64,000 nucleotides of DNA from Octopus vulgaris (lineage: Eukaryota). Position 1 is the first letter of the stretch. Each line of letters opens with the position of its first letter. Shown here in pieces: positions 1,360-55,450 of this stretch. Under the pieces are notes generated by a model. The model saw nothing but the letters and a program-made list of their open reading frames with translations. It did not search any database and was not told where the DNA came from. The position numbers were made by a program, and so were the translations under genes. The stretch spans positions 100,936,001-101,000,000 of the forward strand of contig OX597820.1 of NCBI GenBank assembly GCA_951406725.2, read 5' to 3'.

Positions 1360-1628
1360 ATTCAAACCCCAAAGAATCCCTCTCAACACATGGCTATGAT
1401 GCTCCCCCACTACTTCTGCTTGTGATCAGAGATGCACATATCGTCAGCCACTAAGGGACATGCTCAACTGGTTAAGGTCAAACAACTGACAAGCAAATCT
1501 GTGGTATTGAGCAGAATATTTGCTGTAGCCCATCTTTTATACCAAGACAAAACAATGTACATGATAACACTTCTAATCAGTTAAGATCAGAAGCCATGAG
1601 AGCCACTGCCTGGTACTGCATCAGGGCA

Positions 1629-1630
<2 letters not shown>
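1360..1630 (+). mobile_element. Short interspersed repeat with (ATT)n tail
   Basis: A second partial copy lies at ~61452-61615. A 3' hairpin (TGCCTG..CAGGGCA) is followed by (ATT)n. Confidence 0.6.
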
Positions 1631-1662
<32 letters not shown>

Positions 1663-1790
1663 GTTGTTGTTGTTGTTGTTGTTCTTCTTCTTCTTCTTCT
1701 TCTTCTTCTTCTTCTTCTTCTTCTTCTTCTTCTTCTTCTTCTTCTTCTTGCTGCTGCTGCTGCTGCTGCTGCTGTTGTTGATGTAGTTGA

Positions 1791-1833
<43 letters not shown>

Positions 1834-1848
1834 ATTATTATTATTATT
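1631..1848. repeat. Compound trinucleotide microsatellite (ATT)(GTT)(CTT)(GCT)
   Basis: Read directly from the sequence. Confidence 0.95.
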
Positions 1849-1849
1849 T

Positions 1850-2242
1850 AAGGCAGCAAGCTTGCTGAATCATTAACATGGGCAAAATGCTTAGTGACAT
1901 TTCATCTGTCTTCATGTTCTGAGTTCAAATTCCGCCAAAATCAACATTGCCTTTCATCCTCTCAGGGTCAATAAATTAAGGATCAGTAAAACACTGGGTC
2001 AATGTAATCGACTAGTCTCCTCTAGCCCCAAAAGTTTCAGGCTTTGTGTCTTTAGTAGACAAGATTATTATTATAATTACTAAGGCTTACTGAGCTTACT
2101 GAGTTCAAATTCTGCTGAAGTCAACTTTGCCTTTCATCCTTTTGGGGTTGATTAAATAAGTACCAGTTGAGCACTGGAGTCAATGTAATCAGTTACTCCC
2201 CTCCCTCAAATTTCAGGCTTTGTACCTATAGCAGAAAGGATT
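1850..2242 (+). mobile_element. Two SINE family C copies (one 5'-truncated)
   Basis: GAGTTCAAAT B-box-like motif and TTGCCTTTCATCCT core shared with the copies at 13618, 27622, 31412 and 63701. Confidence 0.8.
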
Positions 2243-2329
2243 GTCATCATCGTCATAATCATTGTCATCGTCATCATCATCATCAACATCATCATCATTA
2301 TTATTATTATTTTCATATACACTCAACAG

Positions 2330-2671
2330 ATTAGACAGCTGGAAAAGAAAAGAATCCTAACATTAGGCTACCGTAGCCTTAGATGCCAAGAACCCTCCTA
2401 AGTATCCTAGCTGTCCCTAATAACACTGTTTTCTGGAGCCGTACTAAACTGGGTTTTATTCCTATTTCCTCTATCCATCTGTTCAGATCTTTAGGGATAG
2501 TTCCCAATGCACCTATAGCTACTAGGATACATCTTACCCACACTTTTCATAGACTCTGTAATTAAATAGCTAGGTCCTGGTACTTTGCTATTTTTTCTAT
2601 ACCTCTCGTATTAATTTTTTCATCATTTGGGACCGTAAAGTCAATTATCTGGCACTTTCCATTCTCTTTAT

Positions 2672-2753
<82 letters not shown>

Positions 2754-3028
2754 CAAATCAGGCCATCTAGCTTCTATTACTCTGTCAGTTTGACTGTTAA
2801 TGTTCCACTACATCTTGTATTTCTTACTTTCTAGTACTTTACTAGGTTCATGTTCATACCATTTATCAATATGTTCAACTCCTAGCTTTCTGCATAGCTC
2901 CCAGTGGATTGCTCTTCCTAGAATCATTATGTCTTTTCTTGTATTATTTCTGTGCCAGCATGCTACATTCATTTACTGTTTGAATTATGCTTTCCTCTTT
3001 TGATTTGCATAATCTACATTGGGAATCT
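2330..3028 (-). mobile_element. R4/Dong-like non-LTR retrotransposon 3' end (Zn knuckle plus restriction-like endonuclease), decayed
   Basis: Minus translation ...HWELCRKLG..KWYEHEP..RWPDL(V)nDKENGKCQIIDFTVPND..EKIAKYQDL..IGALGTIP..LQKTVLLGTARILRRVL. Confidence 0.85.
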
Positions 3029-3156
3029 ATCAGATTGGTGCAAAAGTAATGTCCGATTTCTAGAAAAAATGTTTCAGAGCGAATTAATCAATTTTTTAAC
3101 CTCTTATAGCTTTAAGGAAAGCTGAAGAGGGAGACAGAAAGTTTATTATTATTATC

Positions 3157-3215
<59 letters not shown>

Positions 3216-3229
3216 CATCATCATCATCA

Positions 3230-3298
<69 letters not shown>

Positions 3299-3299
3299 T

Positions 3300-3582
3300 A
3301 TGTTTGACTTTTGCTTTATATTTGTACAAGTTGGCTCCAAGTCTCACCCAGAGACCTCAAGAGACAACAGGGTTGGAAGTTCATGTTGTTGTTATGCCTA
3401 GTGTGCCATATATTTGGGGGGTGGGGGTGTTGTACTAATGAATGTCTAAAAATTTTTTTTTTTTTTGGTTTTTTTTTAAACCGAAAATTATGTTTGTTTT
3501 AAACCTTGAGATTACATAGAAAGTATTTTGCGTAGGATATGAGCAGTTCCCATGAGCACTATCTTTTGAATTTCTGCCATTT
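3300..3582 (-). mobile_element. Second R4/Dong-like 3' end fragment flanked by (TAA)n
   Basis: Minus translation MAEIQKIVLMGTAHILRKILSM* followed by a 3'UTR, with (ATT)n arrays on both sides. Confidence 0.7.
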
Positions 3583-3600
3583 ATTATTATTATTATTATT

Positions 3601-3664
<64 letters not shown>

Positions 3665-3665
<1 letters not shown>

Positions 3666-3900
3666 TAGCAGAGACACCCGGCATTGTTTGGGATTAAAAT
3701 GGCATAGTTTGTATATATATATATATATATTACAGTTATGTTGAAACAGGTGATATGGGAAAGTGCAGCATTGACAACAAAACATTTGTGGAGTAAATGA
3801 TTCAACTAAATGACACGTAATACGTCTATTTGGAGGATTCCAGGCCCTAATCTATCATGAAAAATTGTGAGTGGTGGGGTATGTAATTTTTGAACCCACC
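3665..3900 (-). mobile_element. Probable Helitron 3' terminus (5' extent unclear)
   Basis: Minus strand CCCAAACAATGCCGGGTGTCTCTGCTAG|T matches the hairpin+CTAG ends at 19814, 56524 and 57602. Confidence 0.5.
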
Positions 3901-4304
3901 AAAGAGCTGTCAGTGGATATACTCACCTCTGAGGTGGTCAGTGCTGCATCTAACACAACCCAGCATATGATTGACAGTCAATGAATGGAAGTGTAATGGA
4001 GATATTGTATATGAATGGGTACATTCAGGAAATGGGCTGCAATGGGAGAGGACAACGGTGAAGTGAACGGTTGAAATGTTGCAGAAGGCAACAGGTTGAC
4101 ATTGGATTGCTGGTGAGGCTGTAGAATAAGAAACGTAAAATGAGCCAATGCAGTCACATGAGAATATGTAGTAATGAATTACTTGTAAAAACAAGGCATA
4201 ATATATGTTTATAGTATGTCTGTATTTTTGTATGCAGTGTAAATTAATGAAATATAAGCAAATTACACAATAATTATTAGAGAGAGACAAAAAAATTATA
4301 TATA

Positions 4305-4539
4305 TCGCGTCTGACCACTGTTCGAAGTCAGGATGCCATGATAGATCGTTAGCTCCTACATGTATTTTTTTCTCTCCTTGTTTCTCTCCTTGTTTTTTTC
4401 TGTGTATCTTTCTGTCGAAGAGCGTAGGCTCGAAACGTAAAAGACTTTTTCTATTTCTATTCCTGAGCACCATACTAATACATTTGTTTGCTTGTACTCC
4501 ACCTGCCTTCGTCTTCTGTTTATTTTCGTAAACTTTCCC

Positions 4540-4542
<3 letters not shown>
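4305..4542 (+). mobile_element. Penelope-like pseudo-LTR fragment in (TA)n
   Basis: Contains a minimal hammerhead motif and a T-rich 3' part running into (TA)n. Confidence 0.6.
4407..4444 (+). ncRNA. Minimal type I hammerhead ribozyme motif (A6U core variant)
   Basis: TCTTT-CTGTCGA-A-GAGC(GTAG)GCTC-GAAAC-GTA-AAAGA gives stem I TCTTT/AAAGA, stem II GAGC/GCTC, a palindromic ACGT stem III and a GUA cleavage triplet. Confidence 0.65.
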
Positions 4543-4589
<47 letters not shown>

Positions 4590-4984
4590 GGATAAATTTT
4601 TTAATGTAAAGGTAAATATGTAATTGTAAATACCTTGCAACCATGCAACTGCTGCGATAATTATTAACTGGTAATGGAACAGTAAATGTGTATTTTTATA
4701 TACACCTTGGACCTTGCCTCCTCATTGTTTTTCTTTTTTGAAAAGTTTCACCTCTAGCACTCACATATATGCATTCTGGTATGTCAGTTGTAACATATGT
4801 ATATGTATGTGTAGATGTGTGTGTGTGTGTGTTTCATAACATACATAATGCGAAAACACACACACACTCACAGACACTACACTACTCTCTGTGGTTTGTC
4901 CTCATACCACATCTTGCCTCTCTCTAGCCCCCACTTTTCACACAGTTTCTGATGTAGCACTTTCACTACCTTATCATGTCATCA

Positions 4985-5755
4985 CAACTTGTAGTGGTTT
5001 TGGGCAAGTCTAGGTAATTCATTCATGATATAGGCAATGGTTTCATCCATTCTGTTATAGAGGCAGCACAGCAGAAACACTTGCTCATTCCTAAGGTTGA
5101 TCCTCCAATTCATGAGCAAAGCTTGGTCTTGCGCTGCCAGTATGGTGCTCTCAGTATTTTTGTTCCAGTGCTCCTTTCATCAGCCAATCCCACCTATTTT
5201 TTCTAGCAACTTCAGTTGTGGCGACATGGAATTGATTGTGTAATCCCTTCTTGCATAATTCTTCTTCCTGTCCTTTTTGTACTTCTTCCTTTGTTTTTCC
5301 ATTTTTCTCTGCTTTCAATATTCCCTCACTCCTAACTGTCAATAGCAAGGTTTCCTTACTTCAGGCTAGGCATTTCATTAAACTCTAGAGTTCAATACAC
5401 GTGTAGTCTTCCATACTTATCAGTCCCCTTCCTCCATTTGCTGTTTTCATGTATAGGCGATTAGTGTCTGCACGTGGATGATGGGCTCCACGCATCATTA
5501 GGAGCTTTCTTGTCTTCCTGTCCATCTCCTTTAGCTCTTCCACTACCCACTTCAGGATTCCAGTGCCATACCAAACTACTGTGACTGTGCATGAGTTTAT
5601 TGCTGAAATTATGTTTCTGACATTCAGCTTTGAAGCCAATATTTGTCTCTCTTGCCACAGGTACTGTTTCTATGTCTTTTCTTTCATATTGTGTTTAATT
5701 CCATCTTCTTTAAGTATTCCCAGGTATTTATAACTGGATTGAGGTTCAGTTGCCA
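4985..5755 (-). mobile_element. R4/Dong-like reverse transcriptase C-terminal/thumb fragment, decayed
   Basis: YKYLGILKED...SKLNVRNIISAINS...ELKEMDRKTRKLL...HPRADTNRLYMKTANGGRGLIS...ESTILAAQDQAL. Confidence 0.85.
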
Positions 5756-28225: not shown

Positions 28226-28508
28226 GGAGGAGGAGGAGAGGAGCAGGAGCAGGAGCAGGAGGGGGAGGAGCAGGAGCACGAGCAGGAGCAGGAGGAGAAG
28301 GAGGAAGCAGTGGATATAGGCTATACTTTTGGCATACTAAACATACATATCCACTCTATCCAACATACTGAGTTCTACATGAGATGTTCTTTGCAGTACA
28401 TAAAATGGTTCTTAATATAATTCCCACAACTGTGTGCAGTTTCTCTGTATGTATGTATGTATGTATGTATGTATGTATGTATGTATGTATGTATGTATGT
28501 ATGTATGT

Positions 28509-29061
28509 CAGGTCACTTTCGAGTGCTACTGGTAACATGTAACCCAGTACAACCTGTTGCATGGTCAGGTCGTCGGCAACTAAATTGGCAACCCCACCAA
28601 GCTTGCTTGGTGAGGAGGGTGTTTATTGGACACCCTGCGGGATGAAAAACAAAACCCGTCAAAGGGCGGAGGAACTCTTGAGAGTCAACGGCCATCCAAT
28701 AAATGTCTTAGGGCTGTGTCATGCGCGGGGACATAGAAATAATCGGACTGAATACCTGATCGCGTGGTTAAGCCATTGGGAGTGAAGGACTCCTAGCCTT
28801 TGTTAGGGCATCCTTCTAGGAGAAGGTAACTCAGGTAACTGGGATAACTCCGACATAAAACCTGCGGCTCAGTGGTTACCGATGATGTTGATTTGTTCTT
28901 CTTTTCAGATTATGGCTGCTGTTACTTAGTGAGTGGGATTGACTCAGTGCACAGCCTTTCCTCACTTTAAAAAAAAAATCTTCTTGCACAGGCATTGCAT
29001 GATAACAACATTGATTAAGCTTCGTGCAATGGCCATACTCGATAACAAGGGGGAAGCCACC
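28509..29061 (+). mobile_element. Non-autonomous bipartite RTE derivative (5'UTR plus 47-bp 3' end) inside (TATG)n
   Basis: RTE 5'UTR-like GGCATCCTTCTAGGAGAAGGTAACTC. The 3' 47 bp (29015-29061) match 54719-54765. (TATG)n lies on both sides. Confidence 0.8.
28536..28588 (+). ncRNA. Degenerate HDV/CPEB3-like ribozyme fold (candidate)
   Basis: P1 CATGTA/TGCATG, P2 CCAGT/ATTGG, P3 ACA/TGT, GTCA after P1 and CTAA before P2'. L3 is only 3 nt (canonical is 7). Confidence 0.4.
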
Positions 29062-29894
29062 ATGTATGTATGTATGTATGTATCAAATAGATGTCTTGAA
29101 AAACTATTCTGCACATGCAATAACAGCCGTACCAACAATCCAACATGCCTCCATCATTAGCTGTCCCACGGATATCACTATGGTTTAAGTATGTATGTAT
29201 GTATGTATGTATGTATGTATGTATATATATATGTATGTATTTATGTATGTATGTGTGTACGTATGTATGTATGCATGTATGTGTGTATGTGTATTTAATT
29301 ATCAAATGTATTGTTTGCTAATAAAGCAGTGAAAGACAGGTTGTGCTTAGGCTAATAAACTTACAGCTTATAGGGAGATTAAATGCAGAGAAAGAGAACT
29401 GGAAGGATGTAACACTGACGTCAGTCAACATAAGACATTCACTACTGATTCATAATAATTTTGTCTTTGTTGGTGTTGCTATTGTTTTCAACAGTTGTTG
29501 GTCTAATCACTTTTAATTGAGCAAAATATGACACAGGGATGATGGATGAGTCTAATATGATACAGGGATGATGGATGAGTCTAATATTTGGTTATAAATT
29601 ACAACTGTATACTGGATATGCTATGTCTACGGTTGGGTCTAAACTCCCAGCAGGCAATGGTTGGTCGTATTTTTATACAATAAAGCAGTTATTTTCATAT
29701 GCAAGTGCAGGCATGGCTGTGTGGTTGAGAAGTTTGCTTCCCAGATATGTGGTTTGGGGTTCAGCCCCCACTGCATGGTACACTGGACAAGTGTTTTTTT
29801 GCAACAACCCTGGGTCAACCAAAGGATTGAGTAAAGTGGATGTTAATATGAAGATGATGATACATATGTGTGTATATCTGTATATTCATATGCA

Positions 29895-53765: not shown

Positions 53766-54305
53766 AATTGAAAGGTATAATGAATAAACACTCCAATTGG
53801 TCAAAACAACTTTATATCATTCCTGAATTATCAAAAATCAAATATAAATATATATCAAAACAATAGGGCACCCAATGGTAAATCAAACAGTATAAAATAT
53901 ACGCATCTACATCATCATCGTTAAACGTCCGTTTTCCAGGCTAGCATGGGTTGGACGGTTCGACCAGGGTCTGGGAAGCTAGGAGGCTGCACCAAGCTCC
54001 AGTCTGATCTGGCAGTGTTTCTACAGTTGGATGCCCTATAAAAAGTGATAAAGCCTAAAAGGGTAATATGAGTGAAGTCGAAAGAAGAAAAATATATATG
54101 GAATAAATTAATGCATAATAAAGGTGACTAAAAATTTAAGGCAATGCAGCTAAAATAATATAAATATAAATCGATAAAAATACAAGAGTATAAATATAAA
54201 AAAAAAAGTGTAAGGTAACAACAATAAAGTATTTATATGTGGATGTATGTATATGTGTATGTACATAAGTATGCATACATGTATGTATGTATGTATGTAT
54301 GTATG

Positions 54306-54765
54306 AGAAATCTCAAGTTGCACATGAGAAAGTAAGGCGGGATGTCAGGAAGGGCATCGCTGTTAGACTTCCAGATGGGAAGGGTCTTCCTTTGATGCTG
54401 ACATGCAATGTCTGTGCAAGACCCTGCCTCAGTAAAGCTGGACTCAAGAGTCATCTTCGTAGTCATAAAGTGAGACAAATGAGTGACAACCTGGCCACTG
54501 GATGTGGTGTAACACACCATACTAATCATATCTGTCGGGCATGTGGAAGAAAGTGTAATTCGGCAGGAGGACTTCAACGACATGCAAAGGTACATGAAGC
54601 CCAGTTACAACTACAGCCGGCTATTATTGGTAAAGGTTTTAGTTGCCAATTCTGTACAAGACATTGTAGAACTTTAGCTGGGCTAAAAAGTCACATTCGA
54701 TCACAGTACCAGTAACAGTTAAGCTTCATACAATGGCCATACTCGATAACGAGGGGGCAGCCATA
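54306..54765 (+). mobile_element. RTE-type LINE 3' end encoding three C2H2 zinc fingers, inside (TATG)n
   Basis: Open frame to TAA at 54715: CNVCARPCLSKAGLKSHLRSH, CRACGRKCNSAGGLQRHAKVH, CQFCTRHCRTLAGLKSHIRSQ. No TGEKP linkers. 50-bp 3'UTR with CTCG-ATAA-CGAG stem-loop. Confidence 0.85.
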
Positions 54766-55072
54766 ATGTATGTATGTATGTATGTACATAAGTATGCATG
54801 CATGTATGTATGTATGCATGCATGTATGTATGTATATTTTTTGTCACTAAATGGTCATCAAAGAGTGAAAACGTTTGTCGTAAACAGAAAGACAAAGTGA
54901 CACTTCCTTGTCTCCCTTATAGTAAAAAATGCAGTGAACCAGTGACTGACCTGCAGCTAACTCTTCTATTGTTCACAAGTGCAATACAGTAGAGCTACCT
55001 ATTCATGGACAAGTATAGCTAGGTAATATGCCCCATACTTTCACTAATTGTGTATATATATATCTATATCTA

Positions 55073-55450
55073 TCATCATCATCATCATCATCATCGTTTA
55101 GTGTCCGTTTTTCATGCTGGCATGGGTTGGACGGTGCAATTGGGGTCTGGGAAGCCAGAAGGCTGCACCAGGTCCAGTCTGATCTGGCAATGTTTCTACG
55201 ACTGGATGCCTTTCCTAATGCCAACCACTCCATGAGTGTAGTGGGTGCTTTTTACGTGCCACCGGCACAGGTGCCAGACGAGGCTGGCAAACAGCCACGA
55301 TCGGATGGTGCTTTTTACGTGCCACTGGCACAGGGATCACAACTGCAGTTTCCATGGATTTTTGATGTTGGTGTACTTGACTCAATGGATCTCCTCAAGC
55401 ACAGGGTTGAAACGGTGTTTCTTTACTTGCCACCTGCACAGGAGTCAGTC
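55073..55450 (-). mobile_element. RTE 3'UTR fragment (family D)
   Basis: Matches the 3' end of 37110-37826. Shorter copies lie at 32795-32950 and 53908-54036. Confidence 0.85.

Follow-up and report, generated by a model that had tools for sequence, protein, structure and literature searches.

Results

The locus

The window, by which we mean the whole stretch of 64,000 nucleotides from Octopus vulgaris that was analysed, contains the 3′ end of a LINE with three C2H2 zinc fingers and a non-autonomous element at 28.5 kb. The features are:

28446..28507, no strand assigned: (TATG)n array 5′ of the non-autonomous copy
28508..29063, plus strand: bipartite non-autonomous derivative, LINE positions 1-525 joined to 4118-4162, ending in CACCAT
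29064..29083, no strand assigned: (TATG)n array 3′ of the non-autonomous copy
54243..54305, no strand assigned: 5′ target microsatellite of the (TATG)n type
54304..54764, plus strand: 5′-truncated 3′ end of a three-finger RTE LINE, corresponding to positions 3714-4163 of the full-length copy L072 (blastn, 92%)
54305..54715, plus strand: C-terminus of the LINE ORF, 136 codons and a TAA stop, continuous with the reverse transcriptase (RT) in longer copies
54404..54466, plus strand: C2H2 finger 1, helix SKAGLKSH
54533..54595, plus strand: C2H2 finger 2, helix SAGGLQRH in the window copy and SAGGLKRH in most copies
54644..54709, plus strand: C2H2 finger 3, final His changed to Tyr in the window copy only
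54742..54753, plus strand: core of a putative 3′ UTR hairpin, 4-bp stem and 4-nt loop, with covariation across the clade
54765..54767, plus strand: (AAT)n tail, one unit, the AT of which overlaps the target repeat as judged from the junction phase
54766..54835, no strand assigned: 3′ target microsatellite of the (TATG)n type

A preliminary description of this DNA had noted an uninterrupted frame of 136 codons with three fingers, long linkers without TGEKP, and (TATG)n on both sides. All of these are present. The frame covers 54305-54712 and is followed by the stop codon at 54713-54715, Pfam zf-C2H2_4 matches three stretches of it (E 3.8e-8), and the fingers are of the CxxC-x12-H type with linkers of 22 and 16 amino acids. 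The same description had read the last His as Gln, which is wrong: the last finger of the family is H-x4-H (HIRSQHQ). Of 27 copies parsed from L001-L030, 26 have QHQ and the window copy alone has QYQ, so the change of the ligand His to Tyr is private to this copy. A 21-nt motif of the 5′ array (54256-54276) is present again in the 3′ flank (54779-54799) and is a possible target-site duplication. Minus-strand copies of a short, highly abundant repeat, most of them ending in (GAT)n, lie at 53910-54037, 55090-55450, 33517 and 60457 of the window.

Longer copies carry RT and endonuclease upstream of the fingers, which bears out the reading of the stretch as a LINE C-terminus and not a host exon. 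A host C2H2 zinc-finger gene was considered and rejected on the same upstream RT, on the linkers (about 12 to 26 amino acids across clade proteins, without a TGEKP array) and on the at least 1,321 dispersed copies, a number obtained with an exact 21-mer of the 3′ end. The window stretch itself is an ordinary, dead LINE fragment, and its bipartite partner is ordinary too.

The full-length element

At first look the genome gave 2,388 candidates for the window stretch, the best 40 of which are 95-100% identical (best other copies 95-96%). Full-length copies are about 4.2 kb long, and their single ORF codes for an endonuclease, an RT and the three C2H2 fingers. The ORF follows about 600 nt of 5′ UTR and precedes a 3′ UTR of some 50 nt, which ends in (AAT)0-4 (tail units from 82 copies). 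The 5′ ends are staggered and 5′ truncation is frequent. Pfam finds Exo_endo_phos on L071 and RVT_1 on P0002, and in the relatives L138 and L141 both domains lie in one ORF of 1,171-1,199 amino acids, in which Pfam finds no RNase H; a separate ORF1 was not found there either. As judged from sequence, the element is an RTE-clade LINE: it has a single ORF with an APE endonuclease followed by RT, and a short 3′ UTR with a tandem-repeat end. Its RT is 49% identical at the amino acid level to that of RTE-2_OV, which was published as an RTE (PMC9115989), and its nearest named proteins are from Octopus.

None of the octopus three-finger copies examined has a wholly open frame; the longest, among the best 150 of 9,302 endonuclease-part candidates, is 857 amino acids, so no intact copy was seen. 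Variants shared between copies of this family showed no significant synonymous excess (p=0.55 and 0.26). Six full-length copies (L063, L065, L070, L071, L075 and L076) have up to about 855 nt of unique upstream DNA in common, which is cut at a different point in each copy and is mostly bordered by that copy's own microsatellite. This DNA identifies them as a 5′-transduction subfamily of one source locus. Inverted element sequence was found at the 5′ junction of L005, L008, L012, L025, L036, L041 and L053, and internal deletions in several other copies. In contigs from presumed RNA runs, coverage of the element is skewed towards its 3′ end; that they are RNA is a guess and they are not counted as evidence of expression. 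Sequence and fold searches of the PDB found no structure of an RTE; the matches were L1 ORF2p, R2 and generic C2H2 proteins. An AlphaFold model predicts three separate fingers joined by low-confidence linkers (mean pLDDT 65).

The non-autonomous derivative

The element at 28.5 kb had been proposed as the non-autonomous partner of the LINE, and this pairing holds: both LINE ends are kept and the junction, identical in 30 of 30 copies, has at least 1,893 exact matches in the genome. The likeness is not confined to the tail, as first described, but includes the 5′ UTR, to which the first 505 nt correspond with 92% identity. The alignment begins at LINE position 1, and the derivative consists of the 5′ and 3′ LINE ends without a small-RNA head. 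In an Rfam scan no ribozyme was found, the matches being repeat-driven and below the gathering score. The structure marks the element as an internal-deletion derivative of the three-finger LINE with its own amplification. Its junction also appears as a loose end (window position 54719) in the runs X15, X16 and X18, which are labelled as three different organisms; the LINE/derivative pair is therefore probably older than their split.

Insertion into (TATG)n

We took an unselected sample of 30 LINE loci in genome order, 25 of which had the 5′ end within the fetched stretch. On the 5′ side, 15 of these have (TATG)n, five (TA)n and five other sequence, while 20 x 10 kb of random DNA contain 1.1% TATG per strand and 3.6% TA. 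The 5′ flanks of truncated copies are thus not random. Among the best-match derivatives, (TATG)n was found on the 5′ side in 23 of 30. Flanks read TATG and not CATA in a ratio of 48:1, which argues against passive accumulation. The corrected pool of 5′ flanks comprises 46 TATG, 11 TA, 1 CA and 18 other (n=76). As had been suspected, the LINE and its derivative home to (TATG)n; they do so in one orientation and, less often, enter (TA)n. In frequency, arrays of (AAT)n, (ATT)n, (ATC)n and (GAT)n each roughly equal those of strict (TATG)n (0.4-0.5%), and the element flanks contain AAT or ATT in 0 of 107 and GAT in 1, though the LINE's own tail is (AAT)n.

The bases directly after the tail are GTA in 64 of 108 cases and ATA in 22, and the junctions are in phase on the tail's final AT. 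Array runs have medians of 28.5 nt on the 5′ side and 23.5 nt on the 3′ side (n=98, p=0.80). Since the 3′ arrays are no longer than the 5′ arrays, the pattern is one of homing and not of the net seeding of the microsatellite that had also been suggested. Single loci may have gained repeat units. Duplications were informative in 20 of 125 cases. Six begin on the tail's AT; these are 12-47 nt long and consist of imperfect arrays duplicated across the element (control 0.7%). The other 14, the window copy included, are offset, with other bases between tail and duplication, and about 6 of 125 are expected by chance. Target-site duplications are mostly hidden by the repeats, and we infer that the arrays pre-date the insertions. 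The same repeat on both sides in a fixed orientation, with 5′-truncated copies included, is a feature of microsatellite-targeting elements and was found here.

Relatives of the element

Three fingers are present in 21 of 29 C-terminal homologues (40-46% identity), and the distant relatives come from marine samples. Eleven of 23 metagenome loci hold the 3′ end of a three-finger-type element; these include one near-duplicate and two loci whose fingers 2-3 are out of frame. Ten of them finish in CAT + (GTAT)n, and the remaining one, where its contig stops, in CATGTCTGTAT. Wherever the 3′ end of a metagenome relative is visible (11 of 11), the element terminates in (TATG)n or in the beginning of that repeat. 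(TATG)n also stands at the start of four metagenome contigs. A scan of viral contigs gave no usable flanks, nor did a scan of prokaryote genome contigs, which had one distant match.

Trees were calculated from the RT region with the fingers removed (LG+G4, midpoint root, no named outgroup), one with 45 rows (3 partial rows left out) and one with 39 rows (12 partial, long-branched or near-duplicate rows left out). All rows are RTE-like, with no named reference from another clade, and the clade is therefore placed among those rows only. A 100/100 branch separates the multi-finger proteins from the other rows, and TATG-ended members lie on both sides of the clade's deepest split. P0023 and P0026 are members with two fingers. 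In these trees the three-finger tail is the mark of one old RTE clade and not an octopus novelty, and three fingers and homing appear to have one common origin. With a single origin, their co-occurrence alone proves nothing.

A three-finger RTE protein filed under a bacterial MAG name (P0025) is most likely eukaryotic contamination. Gene models of the tapeworms Spirometra and Sparganum (P0050, P0089, P0112) combine an RTE C-terminus with several fingers of another type, likely an independent finger multiplication in RTE. Locus L255 (about 1500-5550, oriented) contains an older RTE that has at least two clade-type fingers and a terminal (TATG)n array; a truncated three-finger copy lies directly within this array, a case of nested homing.

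Two one-finger families of the same genome

Family C (349 exact 21-mer matches in the genome) has a protein 52% identical to the three-finger protein and a (CAT)n tail. Nearly all copies read have a single finger, which corresponds to finger 1, and then a stop. In the tree it falls inside the three-finger clade, where its sister group is a pair of three-finger proteins (support 100/98). From 30 loci, 26 could be scored, and 14 of these have TATG on the 5′ side, a rate that does not differ from that of the three-finger family (p=0.78) and differs from that of RTE-2_OV (p=2e-4). The idea that finger multiplication confers TATG targeting is contradicted by this family, which homes equally with one finger from within the clade. 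Fingers 2-3 are thus not needed, unless family C receives help in trans. Synonymous to non-synonymous counts are 17:12 for shared variants and 128:352 for singletons (p=5e-4), and no shared frameshift was found in family C, one apparent shared indel being the reference copy's own. This indicates purifying selection and that the family relied on its own protein as it spread, though the similar 3′ hairpins would also allow the three-finger protein to act in trans. The dispensability of fingers 2-3 was observed in one finger-loss family.

RTE-2_OV lies outside the clade and has one finger and an (ATT)n tail. Its primer has 122 exact matches in the genome of the window. We fetched 59 loci, two of which had no readable 5′ end and two others of which (L195 and L196) resemble a duplicated pair. 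TATG was found in 7 of 57 scored loci, far less than in the three-finger family (p=2e-5). This is itself an enrichment over the 1.1% background (p=3e-6), so the contrast with the clade is graded. No visible homing subfamily was founded by the RTE-2_OV copies lying in TATG. At RTE-2_OV positions we found four open frames of 1,123 amino acids and one of 1,351, and L112 and L211 are bipartite deletion derivatives of RTE-2_OV with differing junctions.

Family C and the three-finger family are 95-98% identical at the start of the 5′ UTR (window 28508-28706; L072 1-199 compared with L262 and L191), of which the first 190-199 nt or so are 89% identical between the three-finger family and RTE-2_OV. 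The ORF proteins of the three families are only 45-52% identical. Near-identical 5′ UTR starts with divergent ORFs suggest that a 5′ module was swapped among the three families, and a comparable 5′ switching is known from tobacco RTEs (10.1101/2022.11.04.512097).

Fingers, endonuclease and 3′ hairpin

In 43 three-finger proteins the finger helices are nearly fixed, with Ser at -1, Ala or Gly at +2, Gly at +3, and Ser/Asn, Arg and Ser at +6 of the successive fingers. Gly +3 is found in 41, 41 and 43 of the 43 proteins for fingers 1, 2 and 3 and in 69 of 72 single RTE fingers; Arg +6 of finger 2 is kept in 39 of 43 and Ser +6 of finger 3 in all 43. The fingers thus appear to be under constraint. 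Canonical base-reading finger arrays differ from helices with Gly +3 and long variable linkers, and the usual base-reading residues are absent here. Ala +2 of finger 1 is diagnostic for the clade (17 of 17, against Ile in 9 of 12) and is kept in family C, which leaves finger 1 a candidate reader.

The other clade-diagnostic columns lie mostly in the linker and the RT, and just one is in the endonuclease. Homing and non-homing RTEs have an identical HPxSKxxH loop, the predicted specificity loop of the endonuclease by analogy with L1 and TRAS1. With this loop unchanged and one diagnostic column, the endonuclease is not visibly remodelled.

A 3′ stem-loop common to the LINE and the 28.5-kb element had been described as well. 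The common tail stands, the last 45 nt of the window copy being 91% identical to 29015-29059, but single-sequence folds of the 3′ ends are no better than shuffles (z -0.92 and -0.48). In the 28.5-kb copy one pair of the stem is broken (CTCG/CAAG). Across 11 distinct clade 3′ ends, a 5-pair hairpin covaries: 92.6% are paired, and 0 of 500 shuffles were as high, in a control that ignores relatedness. The hairpin is likely a recognition signal for the RT.

Discussion

How the target may be found

The window holds a dead, 5′-truncated RTE copy from an old clade whose members lie in one orientation within (TATG)n, and we consider it probable that this aim comes from the common enzyme core together with pairing of the last bases of the RNA, and not from fingers 2-3. 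The one-finger sister family lands in TATG as often, which favours core enzyme and RNA end over the extra fingers. Three different tails (AAT, CAT and CACCAT) on one target, and a target that has not drifted at about 50% protein identity, suggest a protein anchor. In the proposed mechanism, the element protein would bind the 3′ hairpin of its own RNA and nick the (CATA)n strand at an AT step. The terminal AU of the RNA, perhaps with a few read-through GUAU bases, would pair with the freed DNA end, and the RNA would be copied by target-primed reverse transcription. The derivative would borrow the LINE protein in trans. The reader of the repeat would lie in the core, that is in endonuclease, RT or finger 1, and fingers 2-3 would be accessory grips on nucleic acid that do not set the target.

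In the main alternative, the target is carried by the RNA. Here a read-through (UAUG)n would pair with nicked (CATA)n, and the target would be inherited from the flank of the donor without special recognition by protein. Such self-homing would account for the orientation, the phase and, via G-T wobble, (TA)n as second choice, and it agrees with the unchanged endonuclease loop. Flank sequence does enter the RNA, as the six copies with common upstream DNA indicate; RTE site choice is reported to correlate with the 3′ repeat of the RNA (PMC6007223), and SART1 RNA was proposed to anneal to its repeat target (PMC7265360). However, TATG is constant across a deep clade though AAT, ATC and AGAT arrays are equally common, RTE-2_OV copies located in TATG founded no visible homing subfamily, repeats are not in excess at the 3′ side, and the six informative duplications begin directly on the tail's AT. 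We regard RNA guidance without a protein reader as rather unlikely. The proposal that the clade is a microsatellite-homing lineage whose target is passed on through the RNA, the donor transcript reading into its own (TATG)n flank as a guide, is likewise tentative. If true, the landing site of a one-ORF enzyme could be reset by the RNA end alone.

The model of the preliminary description, in which the clade owes its target to binding of (TATG)n DNA by the three fingers, seems improbable to us. Three fingers and TATG ends do map to one branch, but this co-occurrence is a single evolutionary event. The conservation of Ser -1, of Arg +6 in finger 2 and of Ser +6 in finger 3 would fit a DNA reader; Gly +3, however, is also found in single RTE fingers, and the long variable linkers are unlike those of sequence-reading arrays. 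The far weaker homing of the outside single-finger RTE-2_OV speaks for the fingers, whereas family C homes equally with one finger and an ORF of its own under selection. The fingers could have begun the preference, with RNA pairing keeping it after their loss. Very improbable is an origin without homing to old arrays, whether the (TATG)n at both junctions is produced by the inserting element or microsatellites are simply places where copies persist. RTE elements do create repeats at their own 3′ ends (PMC2887409), and the bases between tail and duplication in 14 of the 20 informative cases would fit this. Against it stand the symmetric run lengths and the imperfect arrays duplicated across the element from the tail's AT, and survival would give no strand bias.

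Consequences

With the finger-loss control, the question of targeting becomes one about the core enzyme and the RNA end and no longer one about the finger array. How such elements choose a microsatellite is not well understood (PMC3812793), and one genome with three families (three-finger homing, one-finger homing and one-finger with weak bias) makes this choice testable. RTEs are described as dispersed inserters, and a deep clade with oriented homing would mean that target preference arose among APE LINEs one more time, independently; RTE-1_MD is in development for gene writing with random integration (PMC13708176).

The results also contain a warning about octopus TATG markers and about some small C2H2 gene models, since both are located on these repeats. 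The octopus gene model CAI9717719.1 (104 amino acids) is 89% identical over its first 53 residues to the finger-2 region of the LINE, so that in this instance an annotated model includes a fragment of the LINE. The suspicion that such fragments are mis-annotated as C2H2 genes may apply to at least this octopus model.

Comparison with known elements

RTE-2_OV is a single-finger octopus RTE, and its authors call a C2H2 finger rare in RTE (PMC9115989); the accessible part of their account of octopus RTEs reports no three-finger form. The two families are alike in RTE layout, C-terminal C2H2, start of the 5′ UTR and bipartite derivatives. RTE-2_OV differs in its one finger, (ATT)n tail, weak microsatellite bias (7/57) and intact 1,123-aa frames, and its four published primers mismatch five full-length three-finger copies by 4-7 bases. 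The RTE consensus of O. bimaculoides mentioned in the same paper could be the three-finger family. Bipartite non-autonomous RTEs are known as RTESINE1/2, WALLSI3 and Bov-A (PMC5786205). The derivative resembles them as a family of its own without an ORF, made of 5′ and 3′ ends joined by internal deletion, and differs from them, as far as they are described there, solely in its host and in the homing that it has in common with the LINE.

RTEs have a Tn-TA insertion signature and a correlation with the 3′ repeat (PMC6007223, PMC13295347), and the clade agrees with described RTEs in duplications that begin with AT, a tail that overlaps the target and a short repeat tail. They have been described as not sequence-specific (PMC2887409) or as weakly biased (PMC6007223, PMC13295347). 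Described RTEs make one-sided repeats (PMC2887409), whereas 60% of the three-finger family lie in one oriented repeat present on both sides.

Microsatellite-targeting non-LTR elements include Waldo (ACAY), Mino (AC), Kibi (TC), Koshi (TTC) and Dong (TAA), and the accessible part of the review names no RTE among them (PMC3812793). Target-specific APE elements belong mainly to the Tx1 and R1 clades (PMC4640811), and Waldo is assigned to R1 in the title of a reference cited in PMC3812793. Like the three-finger clade, Waldo-type elements insert into pre-existing microsatellites (PMC3812793). Since ACAT is the other strand of the clade's TATG target, the repeat of Waldo overlaps with it. Waldo has two ORFs. 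Membership of the octopus element in Waldo/R1 is ruled out by its single ORF and RTE-type RT, and TATG homing in RTE would be a parallel origin to that of Waldo. A literature search, with Repbase, Dfam and most subscription papers outside its scope, returned no account of an RTE that has three fingers or homes to TATG. LINEs of other clades are known to home to microsatellites; what appears to be new is a deep RTE clade with oriented homing to (TATG)n, together with a natural finger-loss control.
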